Shown: positions 1-57,503 of the stretch, piece after piece
Position numbering within the stretch: the first letter of the stretch is position 1
How the letters are laid out: each line of letters begins with the position of its first letter
DNA from: Minisyncoccota bacterium
Lineage (GTDB): Bacteria; Patescibacteriota; Minisyncoccia; Phycocordibacterales; SBAW01
Assembly (NCBI GenBank): GCA_035548815.1
Contig: DASZSF010000004.1
Span: forward strand, 57,261 to 121,260
Direction: 5' to 3'
Length of the DNA stretch: 64,000 nt
Program-made: the position numbers and the translations under genes
Notes under the pieces: generated by a model
The model's input: the letters and a program-made list of their open reading frames with translations, nothing else
Told to the model about the DNA's origin: nothing
The model's database searches: none

Positions 1-3000
1 TTGCGGCGCTTGAAACGGTCTGGCCGTTGATGAGCCCCGACGTTATGGTGCCCGCGCCGACGCTCAAATTGCCGTTAAAGACGTTGGTTGAGCCGAGCGT
101 CAAACGCGTCGCCGCTGACGAATCTTTGAGAATATTTCCGTTTATCTGCAGCTTGTCGTCGACGGTGAGCGTGTCGCTCGAGATGTTGTAAATGGCGTTT
201 TGCAGGCCAAGCGACGCCTGTATGGTCGTGTCTCCTTCCGCGTCGACGCGGAAGCGCTCGATGCCGTTCACCCCGATGCCCAAGAGCGTGTTGTCGGTCG
301 AGCCACTCGACGGGTTGATGTAGAGGCTGCCCTGCGCGAGGCCCGCGCCCGAAGGCGCCGCCGTCAGCGCCAGCGTGCCTGCGATGGTCGAGGTTGCGGT
401 GCCCGATACCGTCAGCGAATTCGTCAGGCTGACTGGGAAGTTGTTGAATTCGAACTGCTTGGAGACCGAGTTCCACTTGAGCGTCGCGTTGGGGCTGGCG
501 ATGCCACGCGAAAACGCGAGCGTCGCGTCTTCGGTGTCGTTCGTCGCGTTGTCGGAGTTGATGACGAAGGTCGACGACGCCGTGCCGCCCGCGACGACAT
601 TGGTAACGTTGAGCGTCTCCGCATAGACATTCGCAAAGCGCTGCGTCGGCGAGCCGAGGTTGTAGGTCGCGTCGGCGTTGGGGACAAGGTCCGATGCGGC
701 CTCGCCGTTAAACACGATGTTGTTCGACGCGTTGGCACCGAGCGTCGTATTGCCAAGGACGCTCAGGTGGCCCGCCAGCACGTTGGTGCCCGTCGTATTG
801 GTGGAGTTGAAGGTGCCGACGATCTGCACATCGCCTTCCGCGTCGATGCGGGCGCGCTCTGCCCCGTTGACGGCGAGCCCCACAAGCACGTTGTTGGTGC
901 CGGCGCTGGCCGGGTTGATGTACACCGAGCCCTGTCCGATGCTGGCGCCCGACGGCAGCGACAGCACCTGCAACTGGCCGCCCGTTATCGACGACACTGT
1001 CGCACCGTTGACAGTGAGCGCACCGCCCACATACATGCCCCCGGTCGTCGTCGCACCACCCGCGACGGTTAGGCCGCCGGTCTCTGTGCCGGTGCCGATG
1101 GTCGTCGACGCTAGAAAGAGGTTCCCGCCCGTAAATTGGTTGTTGTCGGCGAGCAATGTTGACGATGCCGCGGTGATGGTGATGGAGCCGCCCGCATTCA
1201 ACAGCGAGCCGTTGATAGTGCCGAGCGGGCCGGCAAGGATGTCCGCGCCGATGCTCGAGGTCGCGACGACCTGGCCTGACGCGTTGATCGAGAGCAGCGC
1301 GTTGGCGAGCGCTGGAAGCACGAGCGCGCCGACGCTGACGTTGTTCGCGAAGTACGCGTTGCCCGTCGTTGTCGAGTTGCCGCTCACCGTGAGGCCGCCC
1401 TGTGCCGACCCGTTGCCAATGGTCGTCGATGCGTATGCTGTCAGGCCAGCGTCGAACTGGACAAGCGTCGAGGTCGCGTTGCCAGGCTGCTGGAACGGGT
1501 ATGACGCGGCCACGGTCGTAAACAACGAGCTACTGCTGACCTTCTGGTTGAAGAGGTTCCAGTCGCTTGATGCGAGGTAGCCGTCCGTCGAGCCGTTTGC
1601 CTGCGAGATCGAAAGCGTGTTCCCGGAGAACGAAAGCGGGCCCAAGACGGTGGTGTTTGCCACGGAGCCGTCCGCGTTGGTCGAGAGCAAGGCGCCCGCG
1701 AGGCCCGTGATTGCAAATGAGGTTGAGGTTGCAGTTGTGAGGGCCGTGTTACCGCTAAAGATGTTGGTGCCCGAGAAGGTGTTGTTGTCGGCGAGCAATG
1801 TTGACGAGGCGGTGGAGATGTTAATGGAACCGCCCGCGGGTACGTCGAACCCGTTGATGGTTGCCAAGGTTCCCGTGAGAAGGTTGGTGCCTATAGAGGT
1901 CGTTGCTATGACCGAACCGTCTGCGTTGGTCGCAAGCAGCGCGTTGGCGAGCCCCGTGATGGCGAATGCGCTGGAGGTGGCGTTGGTCGTCTCAAACGAG
2001 GACAGGCTGACAGTGCCACTTATAGTGAGGTCGCCTGCGACATCCAGGGAGTTGGTTTTTATATATTTTGCGATGATCGAGTCCGCATTGGTCGTTCCAT
2101 GTTCCGTTACATCGTTAAGGTTATTGATGACTTGCGAAATGACGACATTTTGAAGCGGGCTTTCGTGGCCAGGATTCTGCAAGAACGCGATCTGCATTTG
2201 AAGCGCCATCTGCAGTGCACTGAGTCGTTCTTCGAGCTGTGCTGATGTTATACCGCTCACGACCGTCGTATGTTCTACCGTGCGTTCAATGACAGGATAC
2301 GTAATGTTCTGAACAACAGTGTTTGTGGTTCCACTCGTGCGAGGCGCAGTTGCAACAGTCGGAGTTGAAGTTGCTGTCTGGTGCACTGATACAGGTTTTG
2401 CTACAGGTTGCACTGCAACAGGGGTGTTTTGTTTAGGAGCAAACAAGATAGCAAAGACATTTGAGAGGAATTTTGTCGCCCCCGCAAAGGCATGCCCTGA
2501 TGGGGTTGGGAGTATCACGCCAGGAGCCTCAACGCCAAAGAATGGGACTTCTGTCTTTGCGACCGAAGCGACCTGATTTTCTTTCAAGGGGTGAAGGGTC
2601 GAGGCAAACACAAGCGCACCCACCAAGAAGAGCGAGCCGGCAAGTGCCGCAACCGAACTTCCGGCTGCAAGTGGACGTGCGTAATAATAAACTTTTTCAA
2701 AAAGACTGCCGTTTTGTTTTTTGTACGAAGCAACTTCAAGACGGCGTTCTTTTGCCAACTCTTCTGCGCGTTGGCGCTTTGCAGCGATACGGGATTCTTC
2801 AAAACGCGCAATCGATTCTGGAGTTACATACCACTGGCCATCAATTTGTTCGCCTTCAAGCTTTCCTTCCCGACACAATTTCGAAACATAATCTGCTGCG
2901 CACGAAAGTCTTTCCGCAGCCTGGCGAGTAGGAATAAGCTCAACTTTGCGATTTGTAGATACATCTGAAGCAGATGCGGCTTCACCAAACGACAAAACTG

Positions 3001-3298
3001 CTGCCAGGGCTTTTTGCAAGAAATTTGCATTCGCGGCACGGAAATTTTCGTTTTCCAAACGGCGTTGTTGTGCGAGCACTTCTGAGCGGCGTGCTTTTGC
3101 ACGTACCCTATTTTCTTCGAACACACTAATAGAAGCCGGGTCCACGTACCATACACCCTCCACCTGTTTGCCGATCAATTTTCCTTCGCGACAAAGTTTA
3201 GAAATGTAGTCCGGGGCACACTTCAAAAGCAGGGCTGCCTTGCGTGCCGGCAACATCAATTCACTCGTGTTTGAAATTATTTTTTTGGTGGATGACAT
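1..3298 (-). CDS. Giant cell-surface repeat protein (partial; C-terminus lies beyond window start): two tandem N-terminal HTH_17/excisionase-like modules, one signal-anchor TM helix, then >850 aa of Thr/Ser/Asn/Gly-rich beta-helix-like repeats
   Basis: Manual minus-strand translation from ATG at 3296-3298: MSSTKKIISNTSELMLPARKAALLLKCAPDYISKLCREGKLIGKQVEGVWYVDPASISVFEEN... second copy ...TRQAAERLSCAADYVSKLCREGKLEGEQIDGQWYVTPESIARFEES...; TM YYYARPLAAGSSVAALAGSLFLVGALVFAST; repeats e.g. LTVSGNSTTTGNAYFANNVSVGALVLPALANALLSINASGQVVATSSIG / GIERFRVDAEGDTTIQASLGL. Frame stays open to position 1. It is not in the ORF track (no in-window stop; the track seems to omit edge-truncated ORFs). The + strand track ORFs at 200-2576 are antisense artefacts of this gene. 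Confidence 0.7.
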   Translation of the reverse strand, partial: MSSTKKIISNTSELMLPARKAALLLKCAPDYISKLCREGKLIGKQVEGVWYVDPASISVFEENRVRAKARRSEVLAQQRRLENENFRAANANFLQKALAAVLSFGEAASASDVSTNRKVELIPTRQAAERLSCAADYVSKLCREGKLEGEQIDGQWYVTPESIARFEESRIAAKRQRAEELAKERRLEVASYKKQNGSLFEKVYYYARPLAAGSSVAALAGSLFLVGALVFASTLHPLKENQVASVAKTEVPFFGVEAPGVILPTPSGHAFAGATKFLSNVFAILFAPKQNTPVAVQPVAKPVSVHQTATSTPTVATAPRTSGTTNTVVQNITYPVIERTVEHTTVVSGITSAQLEERLSALQMALQMQIAFLQNPGHESPLQNVVISQVINNLNDVTEHGTTNADSIIAKYIKTNSLDVAGDLTISGTVSLSSFETTNATSSAFAITGLANALLATNADGSVIATTSIGTNLLTGTLATINGFDVPAGGSINISTASSTLLADNNTFSGTNIFSGNTALTTATSTSFAITGLAGALLSTNADGSVANTTVLGPLSFSGNTLSISQANGSTDGYLASSDWNLFNQKVSSSSLFTTVAASYPFQQPGNATSTLVQFDAGLTAYASTTIGNGSAQGGLTVSGNSTTTGNAYFANNVSVGALVLPALANALLSINASGQVVATSSIGADILAGPLGTINGSLLNAGGSITITAASSTLLADNNQFTGGNLFLASTTIGTGTETGGLTVAGGATTTGGMYVGGALTVNGATVSSITGGQLQVLSLPSGASIGQGSVYINPASAGTNNVLVGLAVNGAERARIDAEGDVQIVGTFNSTNTTGTNVLAGHLSVLGNTTLGANASNNIVFNGEAASDLVPNADATYNLGSPTQRFANVYAETLNVTNVVAGGTASSTFVINSDNATNDTEDATLAFSRGIASPNATLKWNSVSKQFEFNNFPVSLTNSLTVSGTATSTIAGTLALTAAPSGAGLAQGSLYINPSSGSTDNTLLGIGVNGIERFRVDAEGDTTIQASLGLQNAIYNISSDTLTVDDKLQINGNILKDSSAATRLTLGSTNVFNGNLSVGAGTITSGLINGQTVSSAA

Positions 3299-3477
3299 TG
3301 GCCCGATAAAACTTTTGTTTTTCCAGAGATTTCGGAGATACGCACTTACAAATTAAGTATACGGACGAGTTGCAAAAAACTTCAGAAAAAACTCATCGAA
3401 AACTGTGGATAGAAATTAAAAATATTTTTTACAAAATAAAAAACTACGCGCAATAAAATAGCTCAAAAATAGCCTTA

Positions 3478-3498
3478 TAGACCATCGTATATGGTCTA
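3478..3498. promoter_or_regulatory. 8-bp inverted repeat TAGACCAT-cgtat-ATGGTCTA inside the AT-rich upstream region of the giant surface-protein gene; candidate regulator binding site
   Basis: Perfect palindrome read directly in sequence; lies in the ~450 bp, ~25% GC intergenic region 3299-3751. Confidence 0.35.
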
Positions 3499-3685
3499 CG
3501 TAATAAAAATAGACATATCTCAGCTAGTTCCATACTGATTCTGTAAACCTGAGCTTTTTTATGATTAAAAATTTTATAAAACCAAAATTAAATTGATAAA
3601 TTTATTCTAAAACGATTTATCTCGGCTAATTTATATCTATATTTGGCAATATTTCTCGGATAAAAGATATTTATCGCCTATATAA

Positions 3686-3716
3686 AAATTAAAAAGATCC
3701 GATATTTCGCGGACCC
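3686..3716 (-). terminator. Putative intrinsic terminator of gene 3752-4465 (6-bp stem GGUCCG/CGGAUC, 8-nt loop, U-rich tail)
   Basis: Minus-strand RNA gguccgcgaaauaucggauc followed by uuuuuaauuuuu. Confidence 0.4.
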
Positions 3717-3751
3717 TCTGCCATCTCAGATGTATCTAAAACTAATTTATG

Positions 3752-6883: not shown

Positions 6884-7234
6884 TTAGCCCTGCGGCTTCT
6901 TAAAGGCTGCGTGGAGGATCATGGAAACGACCGAAAGCAGCGCTGATGCTTCAAGTGCTGGAATAAAGCCTGCGACGCTAAAGCCCTGCACGAATTCTGC
7001 GAGGAGCCAGAACAGTAGCGCGTTTAAAATAAACGAAAAGAGGCCGAGCGTCAGTATCGTTATAGGAAAGGTAAACAATGTGAGCAACGGGCGCACGGTT
7101 ACGCCAATAATGCCCCACAAAAGCGCTACCCAGACAGCCGTACCAAAACTTGCGATAGCAATGCCCGGCACATAGCGGGCAATAAGCAGCAGTGCCCCTG
7201 CAGTGATCAATATTTTTGCAATGAGTCTAAGCAT
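6884..7234 (-). CDS. Small 4-TM membrane protein, DUF360 / phage holin family 4-like
   Basis: 116 aa, four hydrophobic helices; pattern ...RPLLTLFTFPITILTLGLFSFILNALLFWLLAEF... resembles the Phage_holin_4_2 family. Confidence 0.55.
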   Translation of the reverse strand: MLRLIAKILITAGALLLIARYVPGIAIASFGTAVWVALLWGIIGVTVRPLLTLFTFPITILTLGLFSFILNALLFWLLAEFVQGFSVAGFIPALEASALLSVVSMILHAAFKKPQG

Positions 7235-11188: not shown

Positions 11189-11292
11189 ACACATGGAGCA
11201 ATCTCGATGCTCTATACATAAGTATCGACTACATACTCTATAGATACAATGAAAATTATTTTTTATCTGTGGATATCTTTTTCGAAAAATTT

Positions 11293-12316: not shown

Positions 12317-14626
12317 CTAGGGCTTCAGAGTACCGTTTTGAATTTGAGTTATGACGCTCTGGATCTGTGATGCGAGCGATGGATTTAGTTGTGCCGCGCG
12401 GTTAAGTTCGGCAATAGCGTTTGTTTTATCACTTGCGGTGAAATACGCAGCGGCGAGGCCAAGATGCGCTTGCGCATCGTTCGGAGCCGCTTCAACGCGT
12501 AACTTCCAAATACCGACAACGCGATCGTACTGTTTAGTGTTTACATAGACTTGAAGGAGACGTGCATCATTTACGAGCACGGTGCCAAATCCATCTTTGA
12601 GCAATGCGTCGGCAGCGCTTCCCTGGCCGGCATAGTAGAGACCAGCGGCATACAGAATCCGAGCATCAGAATATGCTGGCTCCATGTCGAATGCCTGCTT
12701 GAGTATCGGAATCGCCTGATCTTTCTGGCCAGCGTTCAGATACGTAACGCCAATTTCAAACAGCACCTGCTGTTTTTGAGGCGAATGCGAATGAGCCTGG
12801 GCGAGTATTTCAAGCGCCTGAGGATACTGGCCGAAGCTATCAAGGAATGCCCCGTCGAAAAGTTCAAGGCGCGCATCATTTTTGCGCTGCTGCATGACGG
12901 CATCTACTGCATTTTGCGCTGCAACAAGCGTGTCTTGTTTGACCGATGGGTCAACGCTGGTTGATGCGGCAATGGTTGAGGCGTACTGCAAAAATTGCTC
13001 TGCCACTTCCTGGCGGCCCATGTCAGTGCCAGGCCATGTGTTATTTCCAAACGCCGTTTTAAAGTCGGCCAGACGTGTCTTGCCATCTTTTGCCTGTGCA
13101 ACAAGAGTCCCGTCGCTGTTTGGGACAGCAACTTGCGGTGTCAGCGCAGTGAGGATATTCTCTGCCCGAGCCATGCCCGGCACGTTCGCAGCCCAAACAA
13201 GGAGGATGGCTAGAACGCCGACAATAGGCGCTGCAATAGCAATTCCCTGGTCGCTTACAGGGCGAGCAAGCCCCGCAAAGCGCGGCGGTTTTTGCGCAAA
13301 GAGCGAGTGAGCGAATGCTAATATAAGAAAGAAGTACACGGAGCTCATGAGGTCATCGAACACAAACAGGTTGTTGAATCCGTACGCAGCAAGCGCGCCC
13401 ATGAGTATTGCTTGCTCAGGCTCTGCCAGTGAAGATCGCATAATGCTCCATGCAGCGAGCAAGAAGAATGAAATGTAGAGCAAGAACGCAGGAAGACCAC
13501 CGGCAATGAGCCAGTCGAGGAACTGGTTGTGCGCGCGGTCGAACCACTGCTCCTGGTTGTACATTTCCGGAGAGTAATATTTGTTGAAGACGAAGTTAAA
13601 GTTTTCCTGACCCCATCCTACGATAGCTGTTTTCGGGCTTTCAAATGACCCTTTGATAGCCATAGGCCATATATAGAAGAGGCGCGCTTTCGTTGTTGTG
13701 TCTTCAAGTGAAATAGAGCTGATGCGGCCGATGGTCGAGGGAGCGTTTTGGAGTAGTGATGTGCTGCGCAATGCAACGAAGCCAATCACAAGCGCCGCAA
13801 TGATACCAAGACCTATCCACGACGCACGGCGCATGCTGTGCCACTGCTGGCCACGCGCTTTCCAAATTATATAGAGAGCGGCAACAATGAGACCGCCTAT
13901 AAGCCCAAGGAACGAACCGCGCGTTTCGGTAAAGTAGAGAGTCGCGACCTCAAGCACGAGCGCAATACCGTACAGTACTTGTGCAGCTGTCGATTGACGC
14001 TGGCGAAACAACATGAAAAGCGTCAGGAAGACGTTCCAGAGCATGAACACAGCCAAGTAGGTCGCATTGCCGAAGGTGCCGTCAACACGGCTGCCGCTTT
14101 GTGAACTTATCGGGAACAGGTTCGCGAATTGGAGCATTGAATACACACCCATAAGCGCGCCTGACGTTATAGAAATTTGGAACAATCTGTTCCACCAATT
14201 TTCTGCTGTTACAACCGTCCCAACAATGTAGAAATAGACAAGGAAGTGCAGGATCGTCATATACCCTTCCATGCGTTCGAAGTTGCTCCAGAAGCTCTTC
14301 GCTGGGTCAACGCTCAAAACCGTTGCGAGCGCCATCCATCCAACGAACGCCAGTACTGCCCACGAAAGCATCGATGCGCGCGGTCGGTATTTTGGTTCGC
14401 GGAGCGCGAGCAACACATATGCACCAAGCATCAACTCCACCACGATCCGGAACATAAAGTTCTTGCCCGTGATGAATGGGAAGTACATGCCTGCAAACGG
14501 AATGTAGAGGTTGGCATGCGCCGTGTTTTGATACCCTGCCCCGCCGTCGGCGATAATAAATGGAACAAAGAAAATCAGCGCGGAACCCACAAGGAGCGCC
14601 CAGCGCAAAAAGCGTGTATACGACAT
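12317..14626 (-). CDS. O-antigen ligase/polymerase family (Wzy_C domain) polytopic membrane protein with C-terminal TPR repeats; candidate O-oligosaccharyltransferase
   Basis: About 770 aa; more than 10 TM helices with a large external loop, TPR-like C-terminus (ALEILAQA...GVTYLNAGQKDQAIPILKQAFDMEP...AELNRAAQLNP). Start taken at ATG 14626 (MSYTRFLRW) rather than the track's 14671, to avoid overlapping fcl. Confidence 0.8.
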   Translation of the reverse strand: MSYTRFLRWALLVGSALIFFVPFIIADGGAGYQNTAHANLYIPFAGMYFPFITGKNFMFRIVVELMLGAYVLLALREPKYRPRASMLSWAVLAFVGWMALATVLSVDPAKSFWSNFERMEGYMTILHFLVYFYIVGTVVTAENWWNRLFQISITSGALMGVYSMLQFANLFPISSQSGSRVDGTFGNATYLAVFMLWNVFLTLFMLFRQRQSTAAQVLYGIALVLEVATLYFTETRGSFLGLIGGLIVAALYIIWKARGQQWHSMRRASWIGLGIIAALVIGFVALRSTSLLQNAPSTIGRISSISLEDTTTKARLFYIWPMAIKGSFESPKTAIVGWGQENFNFVFNKYYSPEMYNQEQWFDRAHNQFLDWLIAGGLPAFLLYISFFLLAAWSIMRSSLAEPEQAILMGALAAYGFNNLFVFDDLMSSVYFFLILAFAHSLFAQKPPRFAGLARPVSDQGIAIAAPIVGVLAILLVWAANVPGMARAENILTALTPQVAVPNSDGTLVAQAKDGKTRLADFKTAFGNNTWPGTDMGRQEVAEQFLQYASTIAASTSVDPSVKQDTLVAAQNAVDAVMQQRKNDARLELFDGAFLDSFGQYPQALEILAQAHSHSPQKQQVLFEIGVTYLNAGQKDQAIPILKQAFDMEPAYSDARILYAAGLYYAGQGSAADALLKDGFGTVLVNDARLLQVYVNTKQYDRVVGIWKLRVEAAPNDAQAHLGLAAAYFTASDKTNAIAELNRAAQLNPSLASQIQSVITQIQNGTLKP

Positions 14627-14634
14627 ACGCGATA

Positions 14635-16570
<1,936 letters not shown>

Positions 16571-16654
16571 TGTTCTACCGCCCTTTCTGCCTGCCCGTCA
16601 ACTCATGCAACTAAAGCGACAGCATGCGGGTTACAAGATACAATACACTAATCC

Positions 16655-17473
16655 ATGCAGACGACCGTCATCCGACCTAAAAAAGTGCTGTCGCTTCGCG
16701 ACGTTGCCGAATTGTGGCAGTACCGCGAACTGCTCTACTTCTTTACCTGGCGGGACCTGAAGGTACGCTATAAGCAGACGACTGTGGGCGTCCTGTGGGC
16801 GATATTCCAGCCGTTCATAGCAATGGTCGTCTTTAGCGTATTTTTCGGCGCACTGGCAGGCATGCCGTCCGACGGCGTCCCGTATCCTATCTTCGTATAC
16901 GTCGGGCTCTTATTTTGGCAGTTCTTCTCCGCGTCCCTGACCGACACGAGCAACAGCCTTCTCACGAACCAGTCCATAATTACGAAAGTATATTTTCCCC
17001 GTCTCATACTGCCCTTGTCGGCCGTGTTGACCCAGTTAGTGGACTTCTGTATCGCGTCCATCATTTTGGTGGGGCTTATGTTCTACTACAACTACGTACC
17101 TAACCTGTCTGGACTTCTAATAGTGCCTCTCCTACTTCTCATCACGTTCCTCGCCGCATTGGGCGGCGGCCTCTTCCTGGCGTCCGTCAATGTCCGGTAC
17201 CGTGACGTGCGCTACGTGCTGCCGTATTTCATACAAATGCTGCTCTTCGTGACGCCGGTCATCTACCCAGCCAGCCTCGCGGGCGCGTATTCCTGGATAC
17301 TCGCGCTCAACCCTATGACCGGCGTCATCAAGGCGGCACGAGGTGCGCTCTTGGGCACCGAACCGGTCAATTGGACGCTGCTTGGCTTCTCAGCCGCGGC
17401 GGTGATAGTAGTATCCGTTATCGGTATCGTCAGTTTTAAAAAGACCGAGCGGCAGTTTGCTGACCTGCTTTAA
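16655..17473 (+). CDS. wzm: ABC-2 type polysaccharide exporter permease (Wzm/TagG-like)
   Basis: 272 aa, 6 TM; LRDVAELWQYRELLYFFTWRDLKVRYKQTTVGVLWAIFQP is the typical ABC-2 N-term. Confidence 0.85.
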   Translation: MQTTVIRPKKVLSLRDVAELWQYRELLYFFTWRDLKVRYKQTTVGVLWAIFQPFIAMVVFSVFFGALAGMPSDGVPYPIFVYVGLLFWQFFSASLTDTSNSLLTNQSIITKVYFPRLILPLSAVLTQLVDFCIASIILVGLMFYYNYVPNLSGLLIVPLLLLITFLAALGGGLFLASVNVRYRDVRYVLPYFIQMLLFVTPVIYPASLAGAYSWILALNPMTGVIKAARGALLGTEPVNWTLLGFSAAAVIVVSVIGIVSFKKTERQFADLL

Positions 17474-17476
17474 ACC

Positions 17477-19336
17477 ATGCTTTCTCTTTCCTCATGGGCG
17501 ACTGCCGGAGGTGTTCTAGCACTGCTGCAGGCAGTGCTATTGCCTGGACTTATTGTGGTACGCCTGCTGCGCATTGAGCTACCACTATCATTGCGCCTTG
17601 CGGCAATTCTGGCGCTTAGCCTCATGGCAAACTATACGACTATTTTCCTCTTGGCCTGGTTCGGGCTCTATACCGCACCAGCAGTTCTTTGGAGCATGGT
17701 GGCAGAATGCGCGGCCTTGCTCTTTCTATATCGTGATGTAGCCCGAACAGCGTTAACCGTTTCGCTTGAACAAGCACAGGATGCGGTCATAGGGTCATAC
17801 GAACAGCGTTGCGCGCCCGTGCGCGCATGGCTCGAAGACACACGCAGAGGCACGCCGGAAGGATTTTTGCTGCGGCTGACGCTCGTATTAGGGGCCGCCA
17901 CGGTAGCATATCTTTCCTACCTTTTGATTTCCAACGTGGGGACGCTATTCAATCTATGGGACCCTATCATTTCATGGAACCGGTGGGCCCTCGAATGGAG
18001 CGCCAACGGGCTCCCGCGCGACACATGGGAGTATCCACAGCTCATCCCCGCCGCGTGGTCGCTTGCATACGTGCTGGCCGGGAGCGGGGGAGAATATTTC
18101 GCCAAGGCGATAATGCCGCTCTTTCCGCTTCTGACTGTACTCGTGATGCTTGGAGGCGGCATACGCATGCGTTCGCCCAGCTATCTGCTTGGCGGCCCCA
18201 TGTTCGTGCTCCTCATGCGGGTGCTGTCGGGCAGCGCCATCATGGCGACCGAAGGATACGTCGACATGGCGGTCACGTTTTTTTCCTTCTGTGCCATCGC
18301 TACCTTGCTTTTTATACGCCCATCGACGCCGGACAGGCAGGCAGCACAGTTCCTCCTGCTGGGCGCGCTCTTTGCCATAGGCGCGGCGATGACCAAGCAG
18401 GCCGGATTGTATATCGTGGTCCTGTACCCCATTCTCTCGGCGCTCATACCCCTACGTGAACACGCGCCCCTGCGAGCGCAATGGCTACGGCAGTTTCTCA
18501 TATACGCACTAGCAGCACTCGCACTTCTAGGCCCTTTCTATATATATAAGGAGGTAGCGATACACACGCAAGGTGATATTTCAGTATTGCCGTCCATCCA
18601 CAATCAAATCTATGGCAGCGGCAAAAGCATGTTTGAAGTTGCTGGAGCAGGCCTCTGGTATTTGGTTACGAAGACCTACGGGCTTGCGGCTTTATACGCC
18701 GTTTTATGCCTGTTCGCATGGCGGGACAGACGCGTGCGCGCCCTGGCGCTTCTTGTCATCGTGCCGTATACGTTGTTCTGGAGCTTCGTGCTAAGCTACG
18801 ACAGCAGGAACATATCGCTGGTGGTGCCGCTTGTAGCGCTCGTAGCTGCAGTGGGCGTAGAACGGCTCATCGAGCGCAGGCGCGTCGCACAATGGCTCAT
18901 GTGCCTTCCTGCTCTGTGGGCCGCGGGAGCGGCGCTCGCGTGCATGCTGGCACTCACGCCTTTTGTGTCCCACAAGATTGCCTCCGCGTACGCGCACGAT
19001 TCGCGGCAGATATACGATACGGAGCTCAGCGTGCTGTTGAGCAACTACTTCGAACATCATCCCGAAGGCTCCATCTACACAAACTTTCCCATACTCTACT
19101 TTATGCCCGCGACAAAAGACCGCATCTGGAGCCCGTTTGGAGGCTATTCGACGAAAACATACGACTTTGACGCCTATGCGGCCAACGCAAACAACCCCGC
19201 CTTTACCTACCTGCTGAGCGCAGACTACACGCCGGCTGGAATCCGCGCTGACATCGAAGCAAAGATCCGCTCGGGCGTGTATGAAGAGGCGCTGCGCTCA
19301 GGGGGGTACTTGCTGGTCAAACGCGCCCGTAATTAG
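17477..19336 (+). CDS. Large polytopic membrane protein of unknown function, inserted between wzm and wzt; possible GT-C-fold glycosyltransferase using a polyprenyl-phosphate-sugar donor (inference from context)
   Basis: 619 aa, more than 10 predicted TM helices plus a C-terminal soluble region; no recognisable motif beyond its position next to the GT2+GtrA gene. Confidence 0.45.
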   Translation: MLSLSSWATAGGVLALLQAVLLPGLIVVRLLRIELPLSLRLAAILALSLMANYTTIFLLAWFGLYTAPAVLWSMVAECAALLFLYRDVARTALTVSLEQAQDAVIGSYEQRCAPVRAWLEDTRRGTPEGFLLRLTLVLGAATVAYLSYLLISNVGTLFNLWDPIISWNRWALEWSANGLPRDTWEYPQLIPAAWSLAYVLAGSGGEYFAKAIMPLFPLLTVLVMLGGGIRMRSPSYLLGGPMFVLLMRVLSGSAIMATEGYVDMAVTFFSFCAIATLLFIRPSTPDRQAAQFLLLGALFAIGAAMTKQAGLYIVVLYPILSALIPLREHAPLRAQWLRQFLIYALAALALLGPFYIYKEVAIHTQGDISVLPSIHNQIYGSGKSMFEVAGAGLWYLVTKTYGLAALYAVLCLFAWRDRRVRALALLVIVPYTLFWSFVLSYDSRNISLVVPLVALVAAVGVERLIERRRVAQWLMCLPALWAAGAALACMLALTPFVSHKIASAYAHDSRQIYDTELSVLLSNYFEHHPEGSIYTNFPILYFMPATKDRIWSPFGGYSTKTYDFDAYAANANNPAFTYLLSADYTPAGIRADIEAKIRSGVYEEALRSGGYLLVKRARN

Positions 19337-19338
19337 GT

Positions 19339-20370
19339 ATGAAAAAAGCCGTCATAATTCCTGCATACGAGCCGGGCGAACACTTCGCTCCGTTCATCCG
19401 CGAACTTGCCGAAGGGCCGTACGAACGCATCGTTATCGTGGACGACGGCAGCAGTGCGCCCGCGCAGCGGTTCTTTGACGAGGTGCGCGGCACGCCGCGC
19501 ACCGTGGTGCTTGCGCACGAGGTCAACCGCGGCAAGGGGGCGGCGCTCAAGACCGCCTTCGGCTACATCCGCGCATCAGAGCCCGACATAGAGCACGTGG
19601 TTACCGCGGATGCGGACGGACAGCACGCGCCTGAAGACATTCTGCGCACGGCGCAGAAACTGGAGACAGAGCCGGGTGCGCTGGTGCTCGGCACACGCAC
19701 GTTCGAAGGCGAGGTGCCGTGGCGAAGCCGGTTCGGCAACACGCTTACGCGCGGGCTTTTTAAGGCATTGTTCGGCATCGCGATTTCCGACACACAGACC
19801 GGCTTGCGGGCGCTCCCTGCTTCGGCGCTTTCTCACTTCATTGCCATCCCCTACAACCGCTACGAATTCGAGTCGGAAATGCTCTTGGTGGCATCACGCG
19901 CCACAATGCCGATACGCGAAGTCCCCATACGCACCATCTACGAGGACGGCAACGCATCTTCCCATTTCAACCCGCTCATAGACTCGTTCAAGATCTACTT
20001 CGTGCTACTGCGCTACACGCTCGCTTCGCTCGCGTCTGCGCTGATAGATTTTGTTGTCTTTTTGCTTATCTATCCGCTTGTTGCCAACGTGCTGGTTGCC
20101 ATATATACCGCACGGGCTGTTTCCCTCTTTGCCAACTACGGTCTTAATAGCAATGCCGTATTCCATGACAGAGCTTCCATATGGCGAACGTTCCCTAAAT
20201 ACCTGCTTTTGGTTATCATCTCTGGTTTTGTTGCGGCAGGGCTTATCATCGCAGGACATTTGTATATAGGACTCCCTATAGCGTTGGCAAAAATCCTAGC
20301 AGAATCTATGCTGTATGTGGTGAATTTCTTTGTGCAGAAAAAATTCATTTTTACTGCGCACAGATCATAG
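19339..20370 (+). CDS. GT2 glycosyltransferase fused to a C-terminal GtrA-like membrane domain (polyprenyl-phosphate sugar synthase, DPM1/ArnC/GtrB-like)
   Basis: 343 aa; VIIPAYEPGEHF...IVIVDDGSS...DADGQH GT2 core, followed by a 4-TM GtrA-like tail. Confidence 0.8.
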   Translation: MKKAVIIPAYEPGEHFAPFIRELAEGPYERIVIVDDGSSAPAQRFFDEVRGTPRTVVLAHEVNRGKGAALKTAFGYIRASEPDIEHVVTADADGQHAPEDILRTAQKLETEPGALVLGTRTFEGEVPWRSRFGNTLTRGLFKALFGIAISDTQTGLRALPASALSHFIAIPYNRYEFESEMLLVASRATMPIREVPIRTIYEDGNASSHFNPLIDSFKIYFVLLRYTLASLASALIDFVVFLLIYPLVANVLVAIYTARAVSLFANYGLNSNAVFHDRASIWRTFPKYLLLVIISGFVAAGLIIAGHLYIGLPIALAKILAESMLYVVNFFVQKKFIFTAHRS

Positions 20371-20374
20371 TTAT

Positions 20375-21646
20375 ATGGAAACACCCATCATCAGCATAAA
20401 AAAAATCGGCAAGCGCTACACGCTCACGCACCAGCAGGGCGGCTATGTCGCCTTGCGCGATGTCATCGCAAATATCGCCCGACGCCCGTTCGCGTTCCTC
20501 AAACACAAAGCGAAGAATGCGGTGGGCCTTGCGCATAGGGAAGAATTCTGGGCGCTGCGCGACGTCAATTTCGAAGTCCACAAAGGCGAGGTTATCGGCA
20601 TCATCGGCAGCAATGGCGCGGGCAAGTCGACACTGCTTAAGATACTGTCGCGCATTACCGCGCCTACCGAAGGTGAAATAGTGCTCCGCGGCAGGGTCGG
20701 AAGCCTGCTTGAAGTAGGGACCGGCTTCCACCCCGAACTTACGGGGCGGGAAAATATCTTTCTCAACGGCGCAATACTGGGCATGACACGCCAGGAAATC
20801 GCCCGAAAGTTCGACGAAATAGTCGCGTTCGCCGGCATTGAACAGTTCCTCGACACGCCGGTAAAGCGCTATTCGAGCGGCATGTACGTGCGGCTCGCCT
20901 TTTCTGTTGCCGCCCACATGGAGCCCGACATCCTCATTGTGGACGAGGTGCTTGCGGTGGGCGACGCGGAGTTCCAGAAAAAATGCCTGGGCAAGATGGA
21001 AGAAGTCACTCAAAAAGAAGGCCGCACGATAATTTTCGTGAGCCACAATCTGGAGGCCATTGCATCGCTATGCAACCGGTGCGTGCTGTTGCAAAAAGGC
21101 ACCGTGGCCCGCGTAGGCCCTTCACAGGAAGTAATCGACTATTATTTGAGCAATAGCCGGAGCCTCAATGCGACTACTGAATACGCCGCAAAAAAGAACA
21201 TCGCGGCGCAGATACGTACAGTGAGAGTATTGCACGGAGATTCCCCTTCTTCCCACATACCTATTCATGCGGGGGTCACAGTGGAAGTAGATTTCGAAGT
21301 CTATGAACCACTGCCCAAAGCGACTATCGCGCCGAGCATATTCCACAACGGGATAGAGCTTATCCACTCCTACGAAAGCGACAGCACGGGGAGGCTCACG
21401 AACTACGCGCCGGGACGCTACACCACAAAGATCACGATTCCGCCTTTCGTACTTAACGTCGGGCATTTCAGCGCCGCCGTTGCCATTGACCAGCCCGGGT
21501 TCGCAGTGATCGACAAAGTAAAAGAAATTGATTTTCAGATCACCGATGGAGAAAATCCAAAAACATCCATCATGAAGGACAACACCGCCGGTCCCGTGGG
21601 AGTATTGCTTGAGTATGAAACTACGCATACTGCCGCGCACGAATAA
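20375..21646 (+). CDS. wzt: Polysaccharide ABC exporter ATP-binding protein (Wzt/TagH-like) with ~190-aa C-terminal extension (putative carbohydrate-binding/chain-terminus-recognition domain)
   Basis: Walker A GSNGAGKST, signature YSSGM, Walker B ILIVDE; start taken at ATG 20375 (METPIISIKK); the track's 20330 start is an upstream alternative. Confidence 0.9.
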   Translation: METPIISIKKIGKRYTLTHQQGGYVALRDVIANIARRPFAFLKHKAKNAVGLAHREEFWALRDVNFEVHKGEVIGIIGSNGAGKSTLLKILSRITAPTEGEIVLRGRVGSLLEVGTGFHPELTGRENIFLNGAILGMTRQEIARKFDEIVAFAGIEQFLDTPVKRYSSGMYVRLAFSVAAHMEPDILIVDEVLAVGDAEFQKKCLGKMEEVTQKEGRTIIFVSHNLEAIASLCNRCVLLQKGTVARVGPSQEVIDYYLSNSRSLNATTEYAAKKNIAAQIRTVRVLHGDSPSSHIPIHAGVTVEVDFEVYEPLPKATIAPSIFHNGIELIHSYESDSTGRLTNYAPGRYTTKITIPPFVLNVGHFSAAVAIDQPGFAVIDKVKEIDFQITDGENPKTSIMKDNTAGPVGVLLEYETTHTAAHE

Positions 21647-21660
21647 CCTGTAGAGCCTGT

Positions 21661-22743
21661 ATGAGAAAAATATTTGTTCAGCAGTCAAGCCCCGTATTCG
21701 CGCACAATAAAATATTCGAAACGCTCGACCTCAACCGGCTCAACGCGGGCTGGATAGAGATGAAGAAACAGTTCGCGGAGCTCGGATACGACCTCATGAG
21801 CGCCGACGACCACAGCCTTTCTGACTGCGAGGGAATCATATTTTTCAACGCCGATAGCCTCGTCTTTCCTATGCCGCTCTCCAAGAGGCTTTCGCGCCGC
21901 CTGTACAAACTGCTTGGCAGAAACGTGGCGACTCCTTACCCTTCTCGCCCGCTCTACGACGAGGCGCTGGCCGCAGGGCTCCGCGAAAGAATGGTGCTCG
22001 TGCTGTGGGAGCCCAGGACCGTGCTGGCGTCTAACTTTGATCCGAAGATATGGAAGATGTTCGACCACATACTGACCTGGGATGACGATCTCATCGGAAC
22101 CCCGCCCTTTGAGCGGTTTGTTATTCCTATGGAAGGCAATGACGTGCGCGCGGAACCGATGCCGTTTGAAGAGAAAAAGCTGCTCGTGAATATTTCCATA
22201 AACAAATATTCTTCGTACAAGAACGAGCGGTACTCTGCCCGCCGAACAACAAGCGCGTACTTTGACAAACACTATCCCCGTGACTTCGACCTCTATGGGC
22301 TCCGGTGGAACAAGCCCGTGACCTTCCTGCAAAAACTATTTCCCTTCCTCGTACAGCACTACTCGACATACCGCGGCCATGCGGGCAACAAACTGGACAT
22401 ACTCGCCCGGTACAAATTCAACCTGTGCTACGAAAACACGTCCGATGCGAAAGGGTACGTGTGCGACAAAATATTTACCTCGTTCCATGCCCGTTCCGTG
22501 CCGGTCTACTGGGGCGCTTCCAACATAGAGGAATATATTGACCCTGACGCCTTCGTTGACAGGCGGGCGTTCGCATCCGACCGCGAACTAGCCGAATTCC
22601 TGGTGAGCGTGACGAAGGAGCGTTACCAACAGTACCTCGACGCGGCAGAGCGCTATATGCAGAGCGAAAAATATGCTACATTCCTTCCTAAGAATTTCGC
22701 ACGGGCATTTATACGGACCCTTAAGCTAGAACCCACACAATGA
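21661..22743 (+). CDS. GT10-family alpha-1,3(/4)-fucosyltransferase
   Basis: 360 aa; YKFNLCYENTSDAKGYVCDKIFTSFHARSVPVYWG matches the GT10 core (H. pylori FutA YKFSLCFENS...YVTEKI...IPIYWG). Confidence 0.85.
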   Translation: MRKIFVQQSSPVFAHNKIFETLDLNRLNAGWIEMKKQFAELGYDLMSADDHSLSDCEGIIFFNADSLVFPMPLSKRLSRRLYKLLGRNVATPYPSRPLYDEALAAGLRERMVLVLWEPRTVLASNFDPKIWKMFDHILTWDDDLIGTPPFERFVIPMEGNDVRAEPMPFEEKKLLVNISINKYSSYKNERYSARRTTSAYFDKHYPRDFDLYGLRWNKPVTFLQKLFPFLVQHYSTYRGHAGNKLDILARYKFNLCYENTSDAKGYVCDKIFTSFHARSVPVYWGASNIEEYIDPDAFVDRRAFASDRELAEFLVSVTKERYQQYLDAAERYMQSEKYATFLPKNFARAFIRTLKLEPTQ

Positions 22744-48797: not shown

Positions 48798-48869
48798 AGC
48801 TCCCGTTCAACGACTTCGTCAACGCGCCATCACACGGCGCGTTTTCTTTTTGGGAAAAATTATATTGAG

Positions 48870-48952
48870 TGGGCATGGGGAGACTCGAACTCCCAATCCT
48901 TACGGAACACGCTTCTGAGACGTGCGCGTATACCAAATTCCGCCACATGCCC
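48870..48952 (-). tRNA. tRNA-Leu (anticodon CAG), type II long-variable-arm tRNA, CCA not encoded
   Basis: GGGCATGTGGCGGAATTTGGTATACGCGCACGTCTCAGAAGCGTGTTCCGTAAGGATTGGGAGTTCGAGTCTCCCCATGCCCA folds as a cloverleaf with 7-bp acceptor, 3-bp D stem, anticodon loop CUCAGAA. Confidence 0.9.
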
Positions 48953-49906: not shown

Positions 49907-49982
49907 TGGTGCGCGCGCTAGGGATCGAACCTAGGACCTTTCGAGTATCAGTCGAATGCTCTACCAACTGAGCTACGCGCGC
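49907..49982 (-). tRNA. tRNA-Ile (anticodon GAU), CCA encoded; sits in the 16S-downstream spacer
   Basis: GCGCGCGTAGCTCAGTTGGTAGAGCATTCGACTGATACTCGAAAGGTCCTAGGTTCGATCCCTAGCGCGCGCACCA. Confidence 0.92.
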
Positions 49983-50067: not shown

Positions 50068-50194
50068 GTTCTACAGTCCCCTGACGTAAGGGGAGACCGA
50101 GTACAGTATAGGATCAGTACTATCATCCAATTCCCTTGCGAGAATTATCGCCTTTTCAGTTGTGACCTCGTACGAGGGGCACAACGTCTTTCAT

Positions 50195-51653
50195 TTGAAT
50201 TGTTCCACGAGCAGCTTCCGCTACCCGTGCCTTGTTACGACTTACTCCCTATCACCGAGCTTGCCGTGGGCCGCGCGAGGCGGACTTCGGGCACTCCCGG
50301 CTCTCTTGAGTTGACGGGCGGTGAGTACAAGACTTGAGAACGTATTCACCGCGGTATAGCTGACCCGCGATTACTAGCGATTCCGGCTTCATGAGGTCGA
50401 GTTGCAGACCTCAATCCGAACTGGGCACTCGTTTAAAGGATTGGCTCAGGGTTACCCCGTCGCGACCCGTTGTCGAGTGCATTGTATCATGCGTGCAGCC
50501 CAGGATATCAGAGGGACATGCTGATCTGGCGTCATCCGCACCTTCCTCCCCCGTGAGGGGGCAGTCTCGCCTGACATATAAAACAGGCAACGCGGGTTGC
50601 GTTCGTTACCCCACTGAAGGGAACAACTCAAGCCACGAACTGACGACGACCATGCATCACCTGCCCAGCCGTCTTGCGAGGTCCAAAGTTTCCTAAGGAT
50701 TACGTCTGGGTTTCAAACCCTGGTGAGGTTCTTCGTTTGCCATCGAATTGAGCCGCATGATCCACCGCTTGTGCAAGTCCCCGTCTATTCCTTTGAGTTT
50801 TAATCTTGCGATCGTACTACCCAGGCGCCTAACTTAACGCGTTAGCTACGTCTCGGAGAGGGTCGATACTCCCCAAAACTAGTTAGGATCGTTTAGGGCG
50901 TGGACTACCGGGGTATCTAATCCCGTTCGATTCCCACGCTTTCGTGTTTCAGCGTCAGATGTGCGCCAGTATGCTGCCTTCGCATTTGGTGTTCCCCATA
51001 ATATCAACGGATTTCACCCCTACACTATGAGTTCCGCATACCTCTCGCACCCTCGAGTCGTGCCGTTTCCACCGCGTTTTCTAGGTTAAGCCTAAAAGCT
51101 TTCACGAAGGACTAACACGACCGCCTACACACCCTTTACGCCCAGTGATTCCGGATAACGCTTGGGGCCTCTGTATTACCGCTCCTGCTGGCACAGAGTT
51201 AGGAGCCCCTTATTCATGGGGTAACGTCAATTACTTCCTCCCCCATAAAAGGTCTTTACGTCCCGAAGGACTTCATCAACCACGCGACGTCGCTCCATCA
51301 GGCTTTCGCCCATTGTGGAAAGTTCTTGACTGCAGCCATCCGTAGATGTATAGCCCGTGTCTCAGTGCTATCGGTGAAGGTCAGCCTCTCAGCTCTTCTA
51401 AGCGTCATAGGCTTGGTAGGCCATTACCCTACCAACTACCTGATGCTGCGCAGGCCGCTCAAAAAGCGGATTACTCCTTTAAAGTCGCCTTACTATCGGG
51501 AATTACCTAACCTTTCGGCTAGCTATGCCCGACTTTTCGGTGCGTACCTGCGTTATACTACCTCGTCTGCCGGTTGCCTTGCGGCCCCCTTGACTTGCAT
51601 GCCTAATCCACGTCGCCAGCGTTCATCCTGAGCTAGGATCAAACTCTGAATAT
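50195..51653 (-). rRNA. rrs: 16S ribosomal RNA gene (about 1.45 kb), 3' end uncertain; atypical 3' tail lacking canonical anti-SD
   Basis: Minus strand reads AGAGTTTGATCCTAGCTCAGGATGAACGCTGGCG at the 5' end (about 51645), GTGCCAGCAGGAGCGGTAATAC (515 region, 2 mismatches), GGATTAGATACCCCGGTAGTCC (806 region), AAGTCGTAACAAGG (1492 region), then helix 45 CACGGGTAGC-GGAA-GCTGCTCGTG followed by GAACAATTCAAAT instead of GATCACCTCCTTA. Confidence 0.9.
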
Positions 51654-51692
51654 AAGAGACAATGCCACAAATAAATGTGTCATGTTCTTGTT

Positions 51693-55720: not shown

Positions 55721-55857
55721 GTCGTGAGAATACCAGGAAAGCTCTGCATTTCAAAGCCCTTGACTGGTCAAAAAATAGTTGTCGCAAAACCTATCCACAG
55801 GCTCTCTTAGGCGAGCTGGCTCATACTGAAGCCAGACCACAACCCGGGAGTCCGGTC

Positions 55858-56694
55858 ATGAACATCGACACGCTGGATACCAAAGGGTTTGTCGCCTTTC
55901 CGTATCCCCGAATGCTCCAAGAAGCCGTGCTGCGGAGTCTGGCGTCGTGGAGGCTCTTCTGCGAACTTCCGCTCGAGGCCAAACATCTGCTTTCCGGCGG
56001 CGACCGAATCAACGACTTCGGCTATATGCGGCGCAAGGATACAAGCCCGCATGCCGACGACAAAGAGATCTTCCATGCACTTCGTGCGAACTACCCGCTG
56101 CTGCTTCCCAAAGCAAGGCACGTGGGCGACCTGCGAGCGGTCGGCTTCATCCGGAGCATTGACTTTCTCATCACGCACATCGCTCCAACAGTACGCGCAT
56201 TTGCGCACGCTGTGGAGCAGCGCTACGCCTTGCCAGGGTTTACTGACGAGGTGATGGGAAGTTCTGACTTCTGGACGTTCCGATTCCTGCGGTATCCGAA
56301 GAACAGCCCGACGCTCGCTCATGCGCATGCCGATCGGGGCGGATTCACATTCCACCTCTGCGAGACAGAGGGCGGAGGCGAATATCTGGGATTCGACAAG
56401 ACGTGGCGTCAATGGCCCGTGAGCAGAAAGCGGACCATCATTTTTGGTAGCATGGGCCTTCAGTATCGCTCGGAGAACAAGATCAAAGCTCTGTGGCACA
56501 GGGTCAGTTCTGAACCCACAGCTATACCCGAGCGGTTCGCCATGGTAGTGTTCGTCGACTTCCAGTCGTCACATCGGTTTCATACCGAAAAATACCCGCA
56601 CGTGCAGCAGTTCACCCCGGGATTCAACTACAACATAGCCTTCCCGGATTTGGCACAGTACTTTATCGAACGTGCACACCCGGTCCCAGGCTGA
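55858..56694 (+). CDS. Putative 2OG-Fe(II) oxygenase-superfamily protein (isopenicillin-N-synthase-like), uncertain
   Basis: 278 aa; possible HxD...H metal triad (LAHAHADRGGFTFH ... H); GC-rich; single + strand gene between secDF and folD. Confidence 0.4.
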   Translation: MNIDTLDTKGFVAFPYPRMLQEAVLRSLASWRLFCELPLEAKHLLSGGDRINDFGYMRRKDTSPHADDKEIFHALRANYPLLLPKARHVGDLRAVGFIRSIDFLITHIAPTVRAFAHAVEQRYALPGFTDEVMGSSDFWTFRFLRYPKNSPTLAHAHADRGGFTFHLCETEGGGEYLGFDKTWRQWPVSRKRTIIFGSMGLQYRSENKIKALWHRVSSEPTAIPERFAMVVFVDFQSSHRFHTEKYPHVQQFTPGFNYNIAFPDLAQYFIERAHPVPG

Positions 56695-56714: not shown

Positions 56715-57503
56715 TTATTGATGCTTCGCGAGAGCGAAAAGATTTTTGAAAATCATGGCGACAGCGATGGGGCCAATGCCGCCGGGAACGGGCGTAAAGA
56801 CTGACGCAACTTCCGCGCATGCTGGGTCGGCGTCGCCAGCTAAGCGACCAGCATCTTCTGATGTACCCGCATCTATCAATACGACTTTTTCTTTGAGCAT
56901 GTCTGGCTTTACGAGCCCCGGCTCCCCTGCTCCAAGCACGACGATGTCCGCATCTTTCAATTCATCTAGACTTCCTTCGTCTTTGGTGATGACGGTGACA
57001 TGCGCCCATAAATCGCGGAGCAATTCTGCAACAGGCGCCCCGACAAGTTTGCCCGCACCCACCACAACTGCTTTTTTGCCCGATGCAGATACACCCATGC
57101 GGACCAGCACTTCCGACACCGCACCAGCCACAGGTGCCAGCACAGCAGTTTGAACACCCGCTATAGCGTCGACGTCTTTGTGAGCTGGCAGAGCAGCAAG
57201 TATGTCAGCCGCGTTGATGTTTGAAGGAAGCGGCATTTGAATGATGATGCCGGCGCACTGCTCGTCTAAGCGCTCGAGTGCGGCGAGTGCATCTTCAGTT
57301 GTGCAATTGTCCGGCAGAAGTTCGCGAACCACTTCAACAGAAAGCTTTTGCGCAACACGCTCCTTGATTCGTACAAATGATGCCGACGCAGCATCCTCTG
57401 CACCCATAAGCACGCCGAGTTTCAAATCAGACGGCAATGTGCCGCGCTCTTTTATAAGCGCATCAACAATGCTTGCCGCAATTGCTTTTCCATCAACTAT
57501 CAT
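56715..57503 (-). CDS. folD: Bifunctional methylenetetrahydrofolate dehydrogenase/cyclohydrolase
   Basis: 262 aa; ...KDVD...VVVGAGKLVGAPVAELL..., PVPGGIGPIAVAM are FolD hallmarks. Confidence 0.93.
   Translation of the reverse strand: MIVDGKAIAASIVDALIKERGTLPSDLKLGVLMGAEDAASASFVRIKERVAQKLSVEVVRELLPDNCTTEDALAALERLDEQCAGIIIQMPLPSNINAADILAALPAHKDVDAIAGVQTAVLAPVAGAVSEVLVRMGVSASGKKAVVVGAGKLVGAPVAELLRDLWAHVTVITKDEGSLDELKDADIVVLGAGEPGLVKPDMLKEKVVLIDAGTSEDAGRLAGDADPACAEVASVFTPVPGGIGPIAVAMIFKNLFALAKHQ

Follow-up and report, generated by a model that had tools for sequence, protein, structure and literature searches.

Tethering of chromosomal DNA to the bacterial membrane has been documented for RacA, RocS and RicO, the proteins combining an N-terminal winged helix-turn-helix (wHTH) domain of the MerR type with a coiled coil and a membrane anchor; in RocS, this anchor can be replaced by a transmembrane (TM) domain (PMC4914108; PMC11500499; bioRxiv 10.64898/2026.03.06.710092). 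The present work deals with a 64,000-nucleotide stretch of DNA (hereafter, the window) from a Minisyncoccota bacterium (GenBank assembly GCA_035548815.1, contig DASZSF010000004.1, forward-strand positions 57,261 to 121,260), the edge of which carries a gene for a giant protein of similar N-terminal layout, accompanied by a gene for a small paralogous partner. The giant protein begins with two wHTH modules, followed by a TM helix and a very long repetitive ectodomain (Table 1). The Bacillota proteins RacA, RocS and RicO are its closest functional analogues, since they share the N-terminal MerR-type wHTH and the membrane attachment distal to the helix (aa, amino acids, 210–235 in the giant protein). 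At the same time, the anchor encoded here is a true TM helix, whereas RacA, RocS and RicO employ an amphipathic helix or binding to DivIVA; the giant protein continues outside the cell as a fiber of more than 3,000 aa, which no known tether does; and, unlike in the Bacillota proteins, its HTH is duplicated and its lineage is Patescibacteria. The profile of the wHTH module retrieved no RacA match at E ≤ 10 from all PDB sequences, RacA included, so the giant protein should be treated as an architectural analogue and not as a member of the RacA/RocS/RicO group.

Other described systems resemble the giant protein in part of their features. Thus, the HTH_17 proteins of the excisionase, BldC and TraN types are small and soluble, whereas in the giant protein, anchored in the membrane, the basic wing residues are lost and the HTH domains are joined to a TM helix and a giant ectodomain; the giant gene also lacks a recombinase or type IV secretion system context. 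With phage tail fibers (T4 gp34 and the Peptidase_S74 endosialidase-chaperones), it shares the Gp34_trimer domain, the S74 domains found in its relatives and the Gly/Ser/Thr/Asn-rich repetitive composition but, in contrast to them, it is encoded by a chromosomally fixed cellular gene with housekeeping neighbors, is anchored by an N-terminal TM and has a domain in the cytoplasm. An initial annotation of the window made from its letters (hereafter, the first-pass annotation) likened the protein to RodZ and ToxR/CadC, with which it does share the N-in bitopic topology and a cytoplasmic HTH. Still, these are poor matches because of the different HTH class: RodZ combines an XRE-type HTH with DUF4115, ToxR/CadC combine an OmpR-type wHTH with a periplasmic sensor, and neither domain type is present in the giant protein. 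Its ectodomain is a fiber, Trans_reg_C was not matched at E ≤ 10, and the test for RodZ returned a weak HTH_31 signal (13–15 bits vs. the gathering score of 27) and no DUF4115. The comparison with RacA, RocS and RicO is the closer one.

The gene is not an artefact. The minus-strand frame starting with the ATG at 3296–3298 is free of stop codons over 1,099 codons down to base 2, as the first-pass annotation had stated, and the nearest in-frame stop on the 5′ side of this ATG is 19 codons away. The frame is missing from the list of open reading frames (ORFs) because ORFs running off the window go unlisted. All 1,099 residues are identical (100%) to those of GenBank HVY72513.1 (P0030 in our set), a protein of 3,277 aa deposited as “immunoglobulin-like domain-containing protein” from a metagenome-assembled genome (MAG) of Candidatus Paceibacterota (here and below, taxon labels of MAGs are given as deposited). 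Hence, what the window carries is the initial third of an actual gene, deposited and uncharacterized, and its full-length product is available, recovery of the full gene having been proposed as a check; the remaining two thirds of the gene lie outside of the window and were analyzed via the identical database protein. Orthologues of the giant protein were found in more than 50 species.

Table 1. Features of the giant-protein locus (positions in the window; A1, alignment of 15 family sequences; HTH, helix-turn-helix; TM, transmembrane)
Feature	Position	Strand	Remarks
Frame of the giant gene, aa 1–1099, 5′ third	2..3298	-	Runs past the window edge; identical to HVY72513.1
Repeat unit 1, aa 7–96, winged HTH and basic helix	3011..3280	-	49% identity to unit 2; HTH_17 at aa 21–63
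Repeat unit 2, aa 113–202, winged HTH and basic helix	2693..2962	-	49% identity to unit 1
Single TM signal-anchor, aa 210–235	2594..2671	-	Kyte–Doolittle maximum 2.07
Extracytoplasmic juxtamembrane motif VPFFG (family consensus SPFFG)	2534..2548	-	P-F-F invariant in A1
“YPVIERTVE” at the ectodomain base, then a helical stretch	2273..2299	-	Conserved in A1
Start of the Thr/Ser/Gly/Asn/Ala-rich fiber with internal repeats	2..2272	-	Composition, repeats
Small paralogous partner, 237 aa	3752..4465	-	Basic winged HTH, acidic/Pro-rich linker, C-terminal TM, short tail
Long AT-rich spacer between the small and giant genes	3299..3751	.	453 bp, 29% GC
Conserved 9-mer TATCCACAG	3403..3411	-	Same sequence as the core of the DnaA box; some 110 nt upstream of the ATG of the giant gene
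Leader block CCGAA-(AAACAAAAG)-TTCGG	3303..3335	-	A-rich center; ends 5 nt before the ATG

By sequence and by fold, the cytoplasmic domains belong to the HTH_17 (MerR–excisionase) winged-helix superfamily. The two N-terminal repeats perceived in the first-pass annotation are real: BLASTP aligned the units over 90 aa with E = 6e-33. The suggested search with HTH_17 (PF12728) matched the giant protein twice; all 1,099 aa together scored 34.6 bits, and the N-terminal 200 aa scored 41.4 bits (the gathering score is 27 bits). In PHROGs, the N-terminal module matched excisionase and small-terminase (TerS) families, and NCBIfam returned a sub-threshold match to “excise”; the NCBIfam matches to OXA beta-lactamases were far under their cut-offs and were rejected as spurious. 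Searches of the PDB sequences with the giant protein and with the module profile gave no matches.

The fold was read from an AlphaFold2 (AF2) model of one module, based on an alignment, in place of the single-sequence model of aa 1–270. The former, built for repeat 2, attained a predicted local distance difference test (pLDDT) score of 90.4 and comprised a short strand, two helices, a beta-hairpin wing and a 46-residue helix; the latter, of moderate quality (pLDDT 63), displayed a helix, a helix, a hairpin and a long helix H54–107. The repeat module thus has the fold expected of the superfamily, i.e., a helix-turn-helix followed by a beta-hairpin wing. A Foldseek search of the PDB placed at the top the Xis of the mycobacteriophage Pukovnik, TraN, the RacA–DNA complex, BldC, NmlR, CadR, GlnR and RdfS, with modest similarity scores (probability ≥ 0.96, E about 1e-2). 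The structural neighbors, essentially all of them DNA-binding or DNA-handling proteins, were aligned on the wHTH core. In A1, the Lys/Arg residues of the recognition helix (S-K-L-C-R-x-G-K) are conserved, and the invariant residues of the module are mostly of the core type (Y, L, C, G, W, V). The HTH core is followed by a basic helix with a charge of +3.4; the 46-residue helix of the module is predicted with high confidence and features conserved R/L/E positions. As to the duplication, to which the first-pass annotation drew attention, both copies are present, but this is not a unique feature: the number of HTH copies in the family varies from one to three, and about a third of the 150 best family members contain two or three matched stretches, so tandem copies represent a common variant.

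The segment aa 210–235 is the only strongly hydrophobic one in the 1,099 aa encoded in the window, in agreement with the single TM helix proposed earlier, and its position relative to the HTH is conserved across all orthologues. A signal peptide ahead of the HTH domains was not found in the giant protein. Within the 15 residues preceding the TM, 33 orthologues have on average 2.4 Lys and Arg residues, vs. 0.8 after it. From the single TM, this positive-inside bias and the domains of extracellular type located C-terminally of the TM, we infer with good support that the giant protein is a type II (N-in/C-out) protein, the orientation assumed in the first-pass annotation. The HTH modules, accordingly, very likely reside in the cytoplasm. 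Conserved A-x-A-like residues are discernible by eye before SPFFG, 12–25 residues past the hydrophobic core; cleavage by a signal peptidase at this candidate site was considered, its distance from the core being larger than usual.

On the outer side of the membrane, the TM is followed by the (S/V)PFFG motif, a Pro/Thr-rich linker, YPVIERTVE and a repeat region rich in Thr, Ser, Gly, Asn and Ala. The (S/V)PFFG motif was found in most family members, and YPVIERTVE is kept in most homologues, both long and short. The region beyond the TM contains 13% T, 12% A, 12% S, 11% G and 10% N and harbors internal repeats (aa 444–514 and 658–728, 61% identity; aa 759–826 and 960–1026), which bears out the earlier description of a repetitive Thr/Ser/Asn/Gly-rich ectodomain; it is 30–58% identical to its counterparts in other Patescibacteria giants. 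The full-length protein includes a Gp34_trimer domain of the long tail fiber protein gp34 of T4 (76 bits vs. the gathering score of 27; aa 2430–2490, outside of the window), a C-terminal Bact_surface_Ig-like domain (35.6 bits) and a weak C1q-like stretch (21.2 bits vs. the cut-off of 23.7), whereas the relatives sharing the N-terminal module carry Peptidase_S74 chaperone domains (e.g., P0018) or LVIVD propellers. A search of the ectodomain against PHROGs returned nothing.

The presence of Gp34_trimer, of the Ig-like domains and of S74 in the relatives speaks for a trimeric fiber and not for a beta-helix or an S-layer lattice; hence, the “beta-helix-like” label of the first-pass annotation does not hold. 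The comparison with an S-layer protein made there fails as well, since neither SLH nor any other S-layer anchoring or lattice domain was detected with Pfam and NCBIfam. The nature of the giant protein as a surface fiber is highly probable judging by its domain content. Outside the cell, it probably forms a long trimeric fiber composed of modules resembling those of phage tail fibers and ending with an Ig-like domain; most plausibly, this fiber would serve an episymbiotic cell as an appendage for binding to the host or a substrate. Certain relatives are labeled by JGI as “trimeric autotransporter adhesin”. This assignment was rejected for the giant protein, which is anchored by its N-terminal TM helix and has no C-terminal barrel of the YadA type; no such Pfam domain was found in the giant protein, P0032 or P0018. 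As a side note, positions 1–2000 of the window have a GC content of 62.6% (52.4% in the whole window) and a positive GC skew; the high GC stems from the coding of Gly/Ala/Thr/Ser-rich repeats and does not point to a foreign source.

The small partner, which escaped the first-pass annotation along with the synteny of the cassette and the size of the family, is related to the N-terminal module of the giant protein (hhalign probability 98.2%, E = 5e-14). HTH_17 was detected in 9 of its 21 orthologues, and its N-terminus is almost invariant in the family alignment (“MDELEISGKRYIS...DYIGQLIRGGKV.G.KVGRAWYV”). The partner retains the canonical basic wing KVGRxW, and the mean charge of its HTH core is +5.8 vs. 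+1.35 in the giant protein. Its tail after the TM is short (~36 aa in the copy from the window, ~27 aa on average in the family).

The genes of DsbD, a holin-like protein, Obg, GatB, the small partner and the giant protein follow each other in this order, all co-oriented, in about 48 of 54 species (in the species other than that of the window, synteny was judged within 8 kb of the fetched upstream flank). The cassette is kept even where the large gene encodes only 291–320 aa (loci L045 and L047), still beside the small partner, suggesting that the conserved function is vested in the membrane and HTH modules, with the fiber as a variable payload. The holin-like gene of the window (6884–7234, minus strand), situated between DsbD and Obg, encodes a 116-aa membrane protein of the Phage_holin_4_2 family. 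It occupies a conserved position in many related loci and is, therefore, a chromosomal gene and not a remnant of a prophage.

The family defined by the N-terminal module (N-module) is large: an exhaustive profile search yielded 5,312, 1,492 and 89 cluster representatives at E ≤ 1e-3, 1e-10 and 1e-30, respectively, whereas word-indexed searches retrieved few relatives. Among the 150 best members, 47 are at least 1,000 aa long and 14 at least 3,000 aa long, the longest one reaching 5,777 aa. A narrow motif scan with one genome per species resulted in 54 loci, almost all of them labeled as Patescibacteria (Adlerbacteria, Paceibacterota, Nomurabacteria, Parcubacteria, Minisyncoccia). Minimal members of ~300 aa (L045:7914-8873, L047:6581-7453, P0001–P0008) consist of wHTH, TM, SPFFG, PVIER and a C-terminal “LCxxxxCLTKxQLxxLL”, without a fiber. 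The C-terminal motif “C...C-x-[TS]-K-x-QL-x-x-LL” is common to many giants and to these minimal members; thus, the fiber appears as a hypervariable insert between conserved ends. The searchable literature yielded no description of the wHTH–TM–giant fiber architecture, i.e., of an HTH module fused to a giant extracellular fiber, nor of the duplicated module, the paralogous partner or the fixed synteny. One homologue of 2,864 aa (P0107) displays, by eye, an intein-like insertion in its fiber region at about aa 1000–1400, with a Cys-start block, the end “...VAHNT” and an unrelated domain enclosed.

By analogy with RacA, RocS and RicO, the cassette may be a DNA–membrane tether at the base of the fiber, a reading to which we assign about as much belief as doubt. 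In such a tether, the giant and the small wHTH proteins would act jointly at the inner face of the membrane. The small basic partner would be the main DNA binder, the long helices of the giant protein would form an oligomerization stalk, and DNA (the nucleoid or a specific locus) would be held beneath the base of the surface fiber. DNA binding by the cassette as a whole is slightly favored; the participation of the giant protein’s own HTHs in this binding is somewhat doubtful.

A number of observations weigh against the tether. Scored alone, the repeats stay below the gathering score of HTH_17 (17.6 bits for unit 1 and 26.7 bits for unit 2) and are, therefore, divergent members. The HTH cores of the giant protein are near neutral (the above-mentioned +1.35 is the mean over the orthologues; the two cores in the window have charges of 0 and −2) and have lost the basic wing residues (K-x-G-R) found in canonical domains of the excisionase type. 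A trimeric fiber would present three (here, six) HTHs, a geometry unlike that of the known dimeric or tetrameric tethers. The oligomeric state, the exposure at the surface and the role as an adhesin have been deduced from domain content. Finally, signatures of DnaA, ParB and SMC are absent from the window, as is a GC-skew switch, so it offers no evidence of a link to a replication origin.

The same divergence of the cores can be read differently: the HTHs of the giant protein might be a protein–protein or assembly module organizing, clustering or retaining the fiber base, possibly via the small partner, with the basic helix serving only the positive-inside rule (the HTH of RodZ, e.g., binds MreB). 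Near-neutral or acidic cores without the basic wing residues, mostly core-type invariant residues and sub-threshold scores of single domains speak for this reading, as does a copy number of one to three, which could be expected of an avidity or scaffold module. It is nevertheless held to be rather unlikely, given that the structural neighbors of the wHTH core handle DNA nearly without exception, that the Lys/Arg residues of the recognition helix are conserved, and that the strongly basic canonical HTH of the co-conserved paralogue is hard to explain without DNA. Comparably low confidence is placed in an extended version of the tether, a trans-envelope coupler specific to Patescibacteria. There, the wHTHs of a giant host-binding fiber and of its small partner would bind DNA and position the nucleoid (or incoming or outgoing DNA) at the site of contact with the host, or else pass the tension or contact of the fiber to the DNA-binding domain. 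Improbable, but compatible with the bitopic N-in topology and a domain of the DNA-binding type, is a one-component membrane-bound transcription regulator with a ToxR/CadC-like logic: contact or tension of the fiber would alter the oligomeric state or free the HTH (e.g., by intramembrane proteolysis) and thereby switch genes, maybe acting on its own promoter or leader. CPR (Candidate Phyla Radiation) genomes are poor in conventional signaling systems, which counts for this option, and both the conserved TATCCACAG at about −110 and the repeat CCGAA-N22-TTCGG before the ATG could be operators. However, the HTH is of the MerR/Xis class and not of the OmpR type, neither a sensor domain nor a protease partner was identified, and the ~300-aa members keep the module but have no fiber to sense with; moreover, TATCCACAG is not specific to the giant gene, being located upstream of unrelated genes (e.g., secA) as well.

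The idea put forward in the first-pass annotation, viz. a glycoprotein of S-layer scale linking the surface layer with the nucleoid or transcription and accepting glycans from the adjacent O-glycosylation machinery, appears highly improbable. The ectodomain is indeed rich in Thr and Ser, and the window does contain a cluster of glycan genes, one of which encodes a ligase-like Wzy_C/TPR protein. This cluster, however, is not adjacent: eight unrelated genes and about 9 kb separate it from the giant gene, and nothing ties it to the giant protein, the domain content of which is that of a trimeric fiber and not of a lattice, with no SLH or S-layer domain. Furthermore, the conserved upstream neighbors (DsbD, the holin-like protein, Obg, GatB) include no glycosylation genes in the 8 kb flank. 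The combination of an excisionase-type HTH with tail-fiber domains (Gp34_trimer, and S74 in the relatives) could also bring to mind a tail-fiber gene of a prophage or another mobile element, fused to or preceded by an excisionase. This explanation is effectively refuted by the fixed place among housekeeping genes in the species with the conserved gene order, the lack of phage genes nearby, the conserved TM anchor and the search of 2.9 million viral contigs, which revealed no full N-module and three HTH-only matches.

A large part of the diversity of bacteria is accounted for by Patescibacteria (CPR), which possess tiny genomes and spend their life attached to other cells. Against this background, the lineage devotes up to 1–2% of the genome to one gene of the giant family and keeps it with the small paralogue at a fixed locus. 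The architecture unites things that are normally separate, a domain of the DNA-binding type inside the cell and an appendage resembling a phage tail fiber outside it. If the HTHs do bind DNA, this would be the first surface fiber physically coupled to the chromosome, and the principle of membrane–DNA tethering known from RacA, RocS and RicO would reach beyond Bacillota, with implications for nucleoid organization, DNA uptake or host sensing in ultrasmall cells. In the variant with transmission of tension or contact, the protein would be a one-polypeptide contact sensor in organisms largely devoid of conventional signaling. Even with HTHs acting as a scaffold only, the N-module (wHTH, TM, SPFFG, PVIER) defines a large unnamed family, a practical marker for the surface fibers of uncultured CPR bacteria.

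The spacer between the small and the giant genes is a recurrent feature: in 33 orthologous loci, it is 311–843 bp long with about 30% GC, vs. 46–59% for the locus. It contains a single copy of the box TATCCACA(G), read on the coding strand and in most cases situated between −114 and −104 relative to the ATG; the 8-mer is found in 31 of the 33 spacers, vs. a maximum of 9 in shuffles. The window contains 6 copies of the box (1.2 expected), e.g., at 11268–11275 (minus strand) upstream of secA and at 55792–55799 (plus strand) upstream of the gene at 55858. The box is a candidate site for DnaA acting as a regulator or for another factor. The spacer was rejected as a replication origin in view of the one box at a fixed position, the co-oriented flanking genes and the lack of a GC-skew switch and of a dnaA signature in the window. 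The box was also tried as a −10 element of the sigma-70 type with a −35 element: TTGTAA is located 17 nt upstream of it here and at secA, but TTG is found there in 1 of 32 orthologues, and this option was discarded.

The leader block is the inverted repeat CCGAA-N22-TTCGG, in which CGAA, A.AG and T.TCG do not vary among 24 orthologous loci; no other gene start within the window has a copy of it. A −10-like TATACT occurs at 3356–3361 in the window, and a −10-like GTAnAAT precedes the block in the orthologues. A structured leader RNA found no support: Rfam gave no match and RNAalifold predicted no pairs, with no covariation. The block may function as an operator in the DNA or as a leader for translation initiation.

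The glycan biosynthesis and export cluster of the window (12317–22743) is separated from the giant gene by the genes of the small partner, GatB, Obg, the holin-like protein, DsbD, a NUDIX protein, SecA and MurB. It encodes a 784-aa fusion of Wzy_C (O-antigen-ligase-like) with TPR, a GDP-mannose 4,6-dehydratase and an epimerase (a pathway of the GDP-fucose type), a pair of ABC-2 transporter proteins, a GT2–GtrA protein, a GT10 fucosyltransferase-like protein and a 619-aa protein (17477–19336) without a Pfam match. Further along the window, the 16S rRNA gene (50193–51654) is followed by the genes of tRNA-Ile(GAT) at 49907–49982 and tRNA-Leu(CAG) at 48869–48952, all on the minus strand, with no adjacent 23S rRNA gene. 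Such an arrangement suggests that the rRNA operon is unlinked in the source genome; unlinked rRNA operons are often reported for CPR bacteria.

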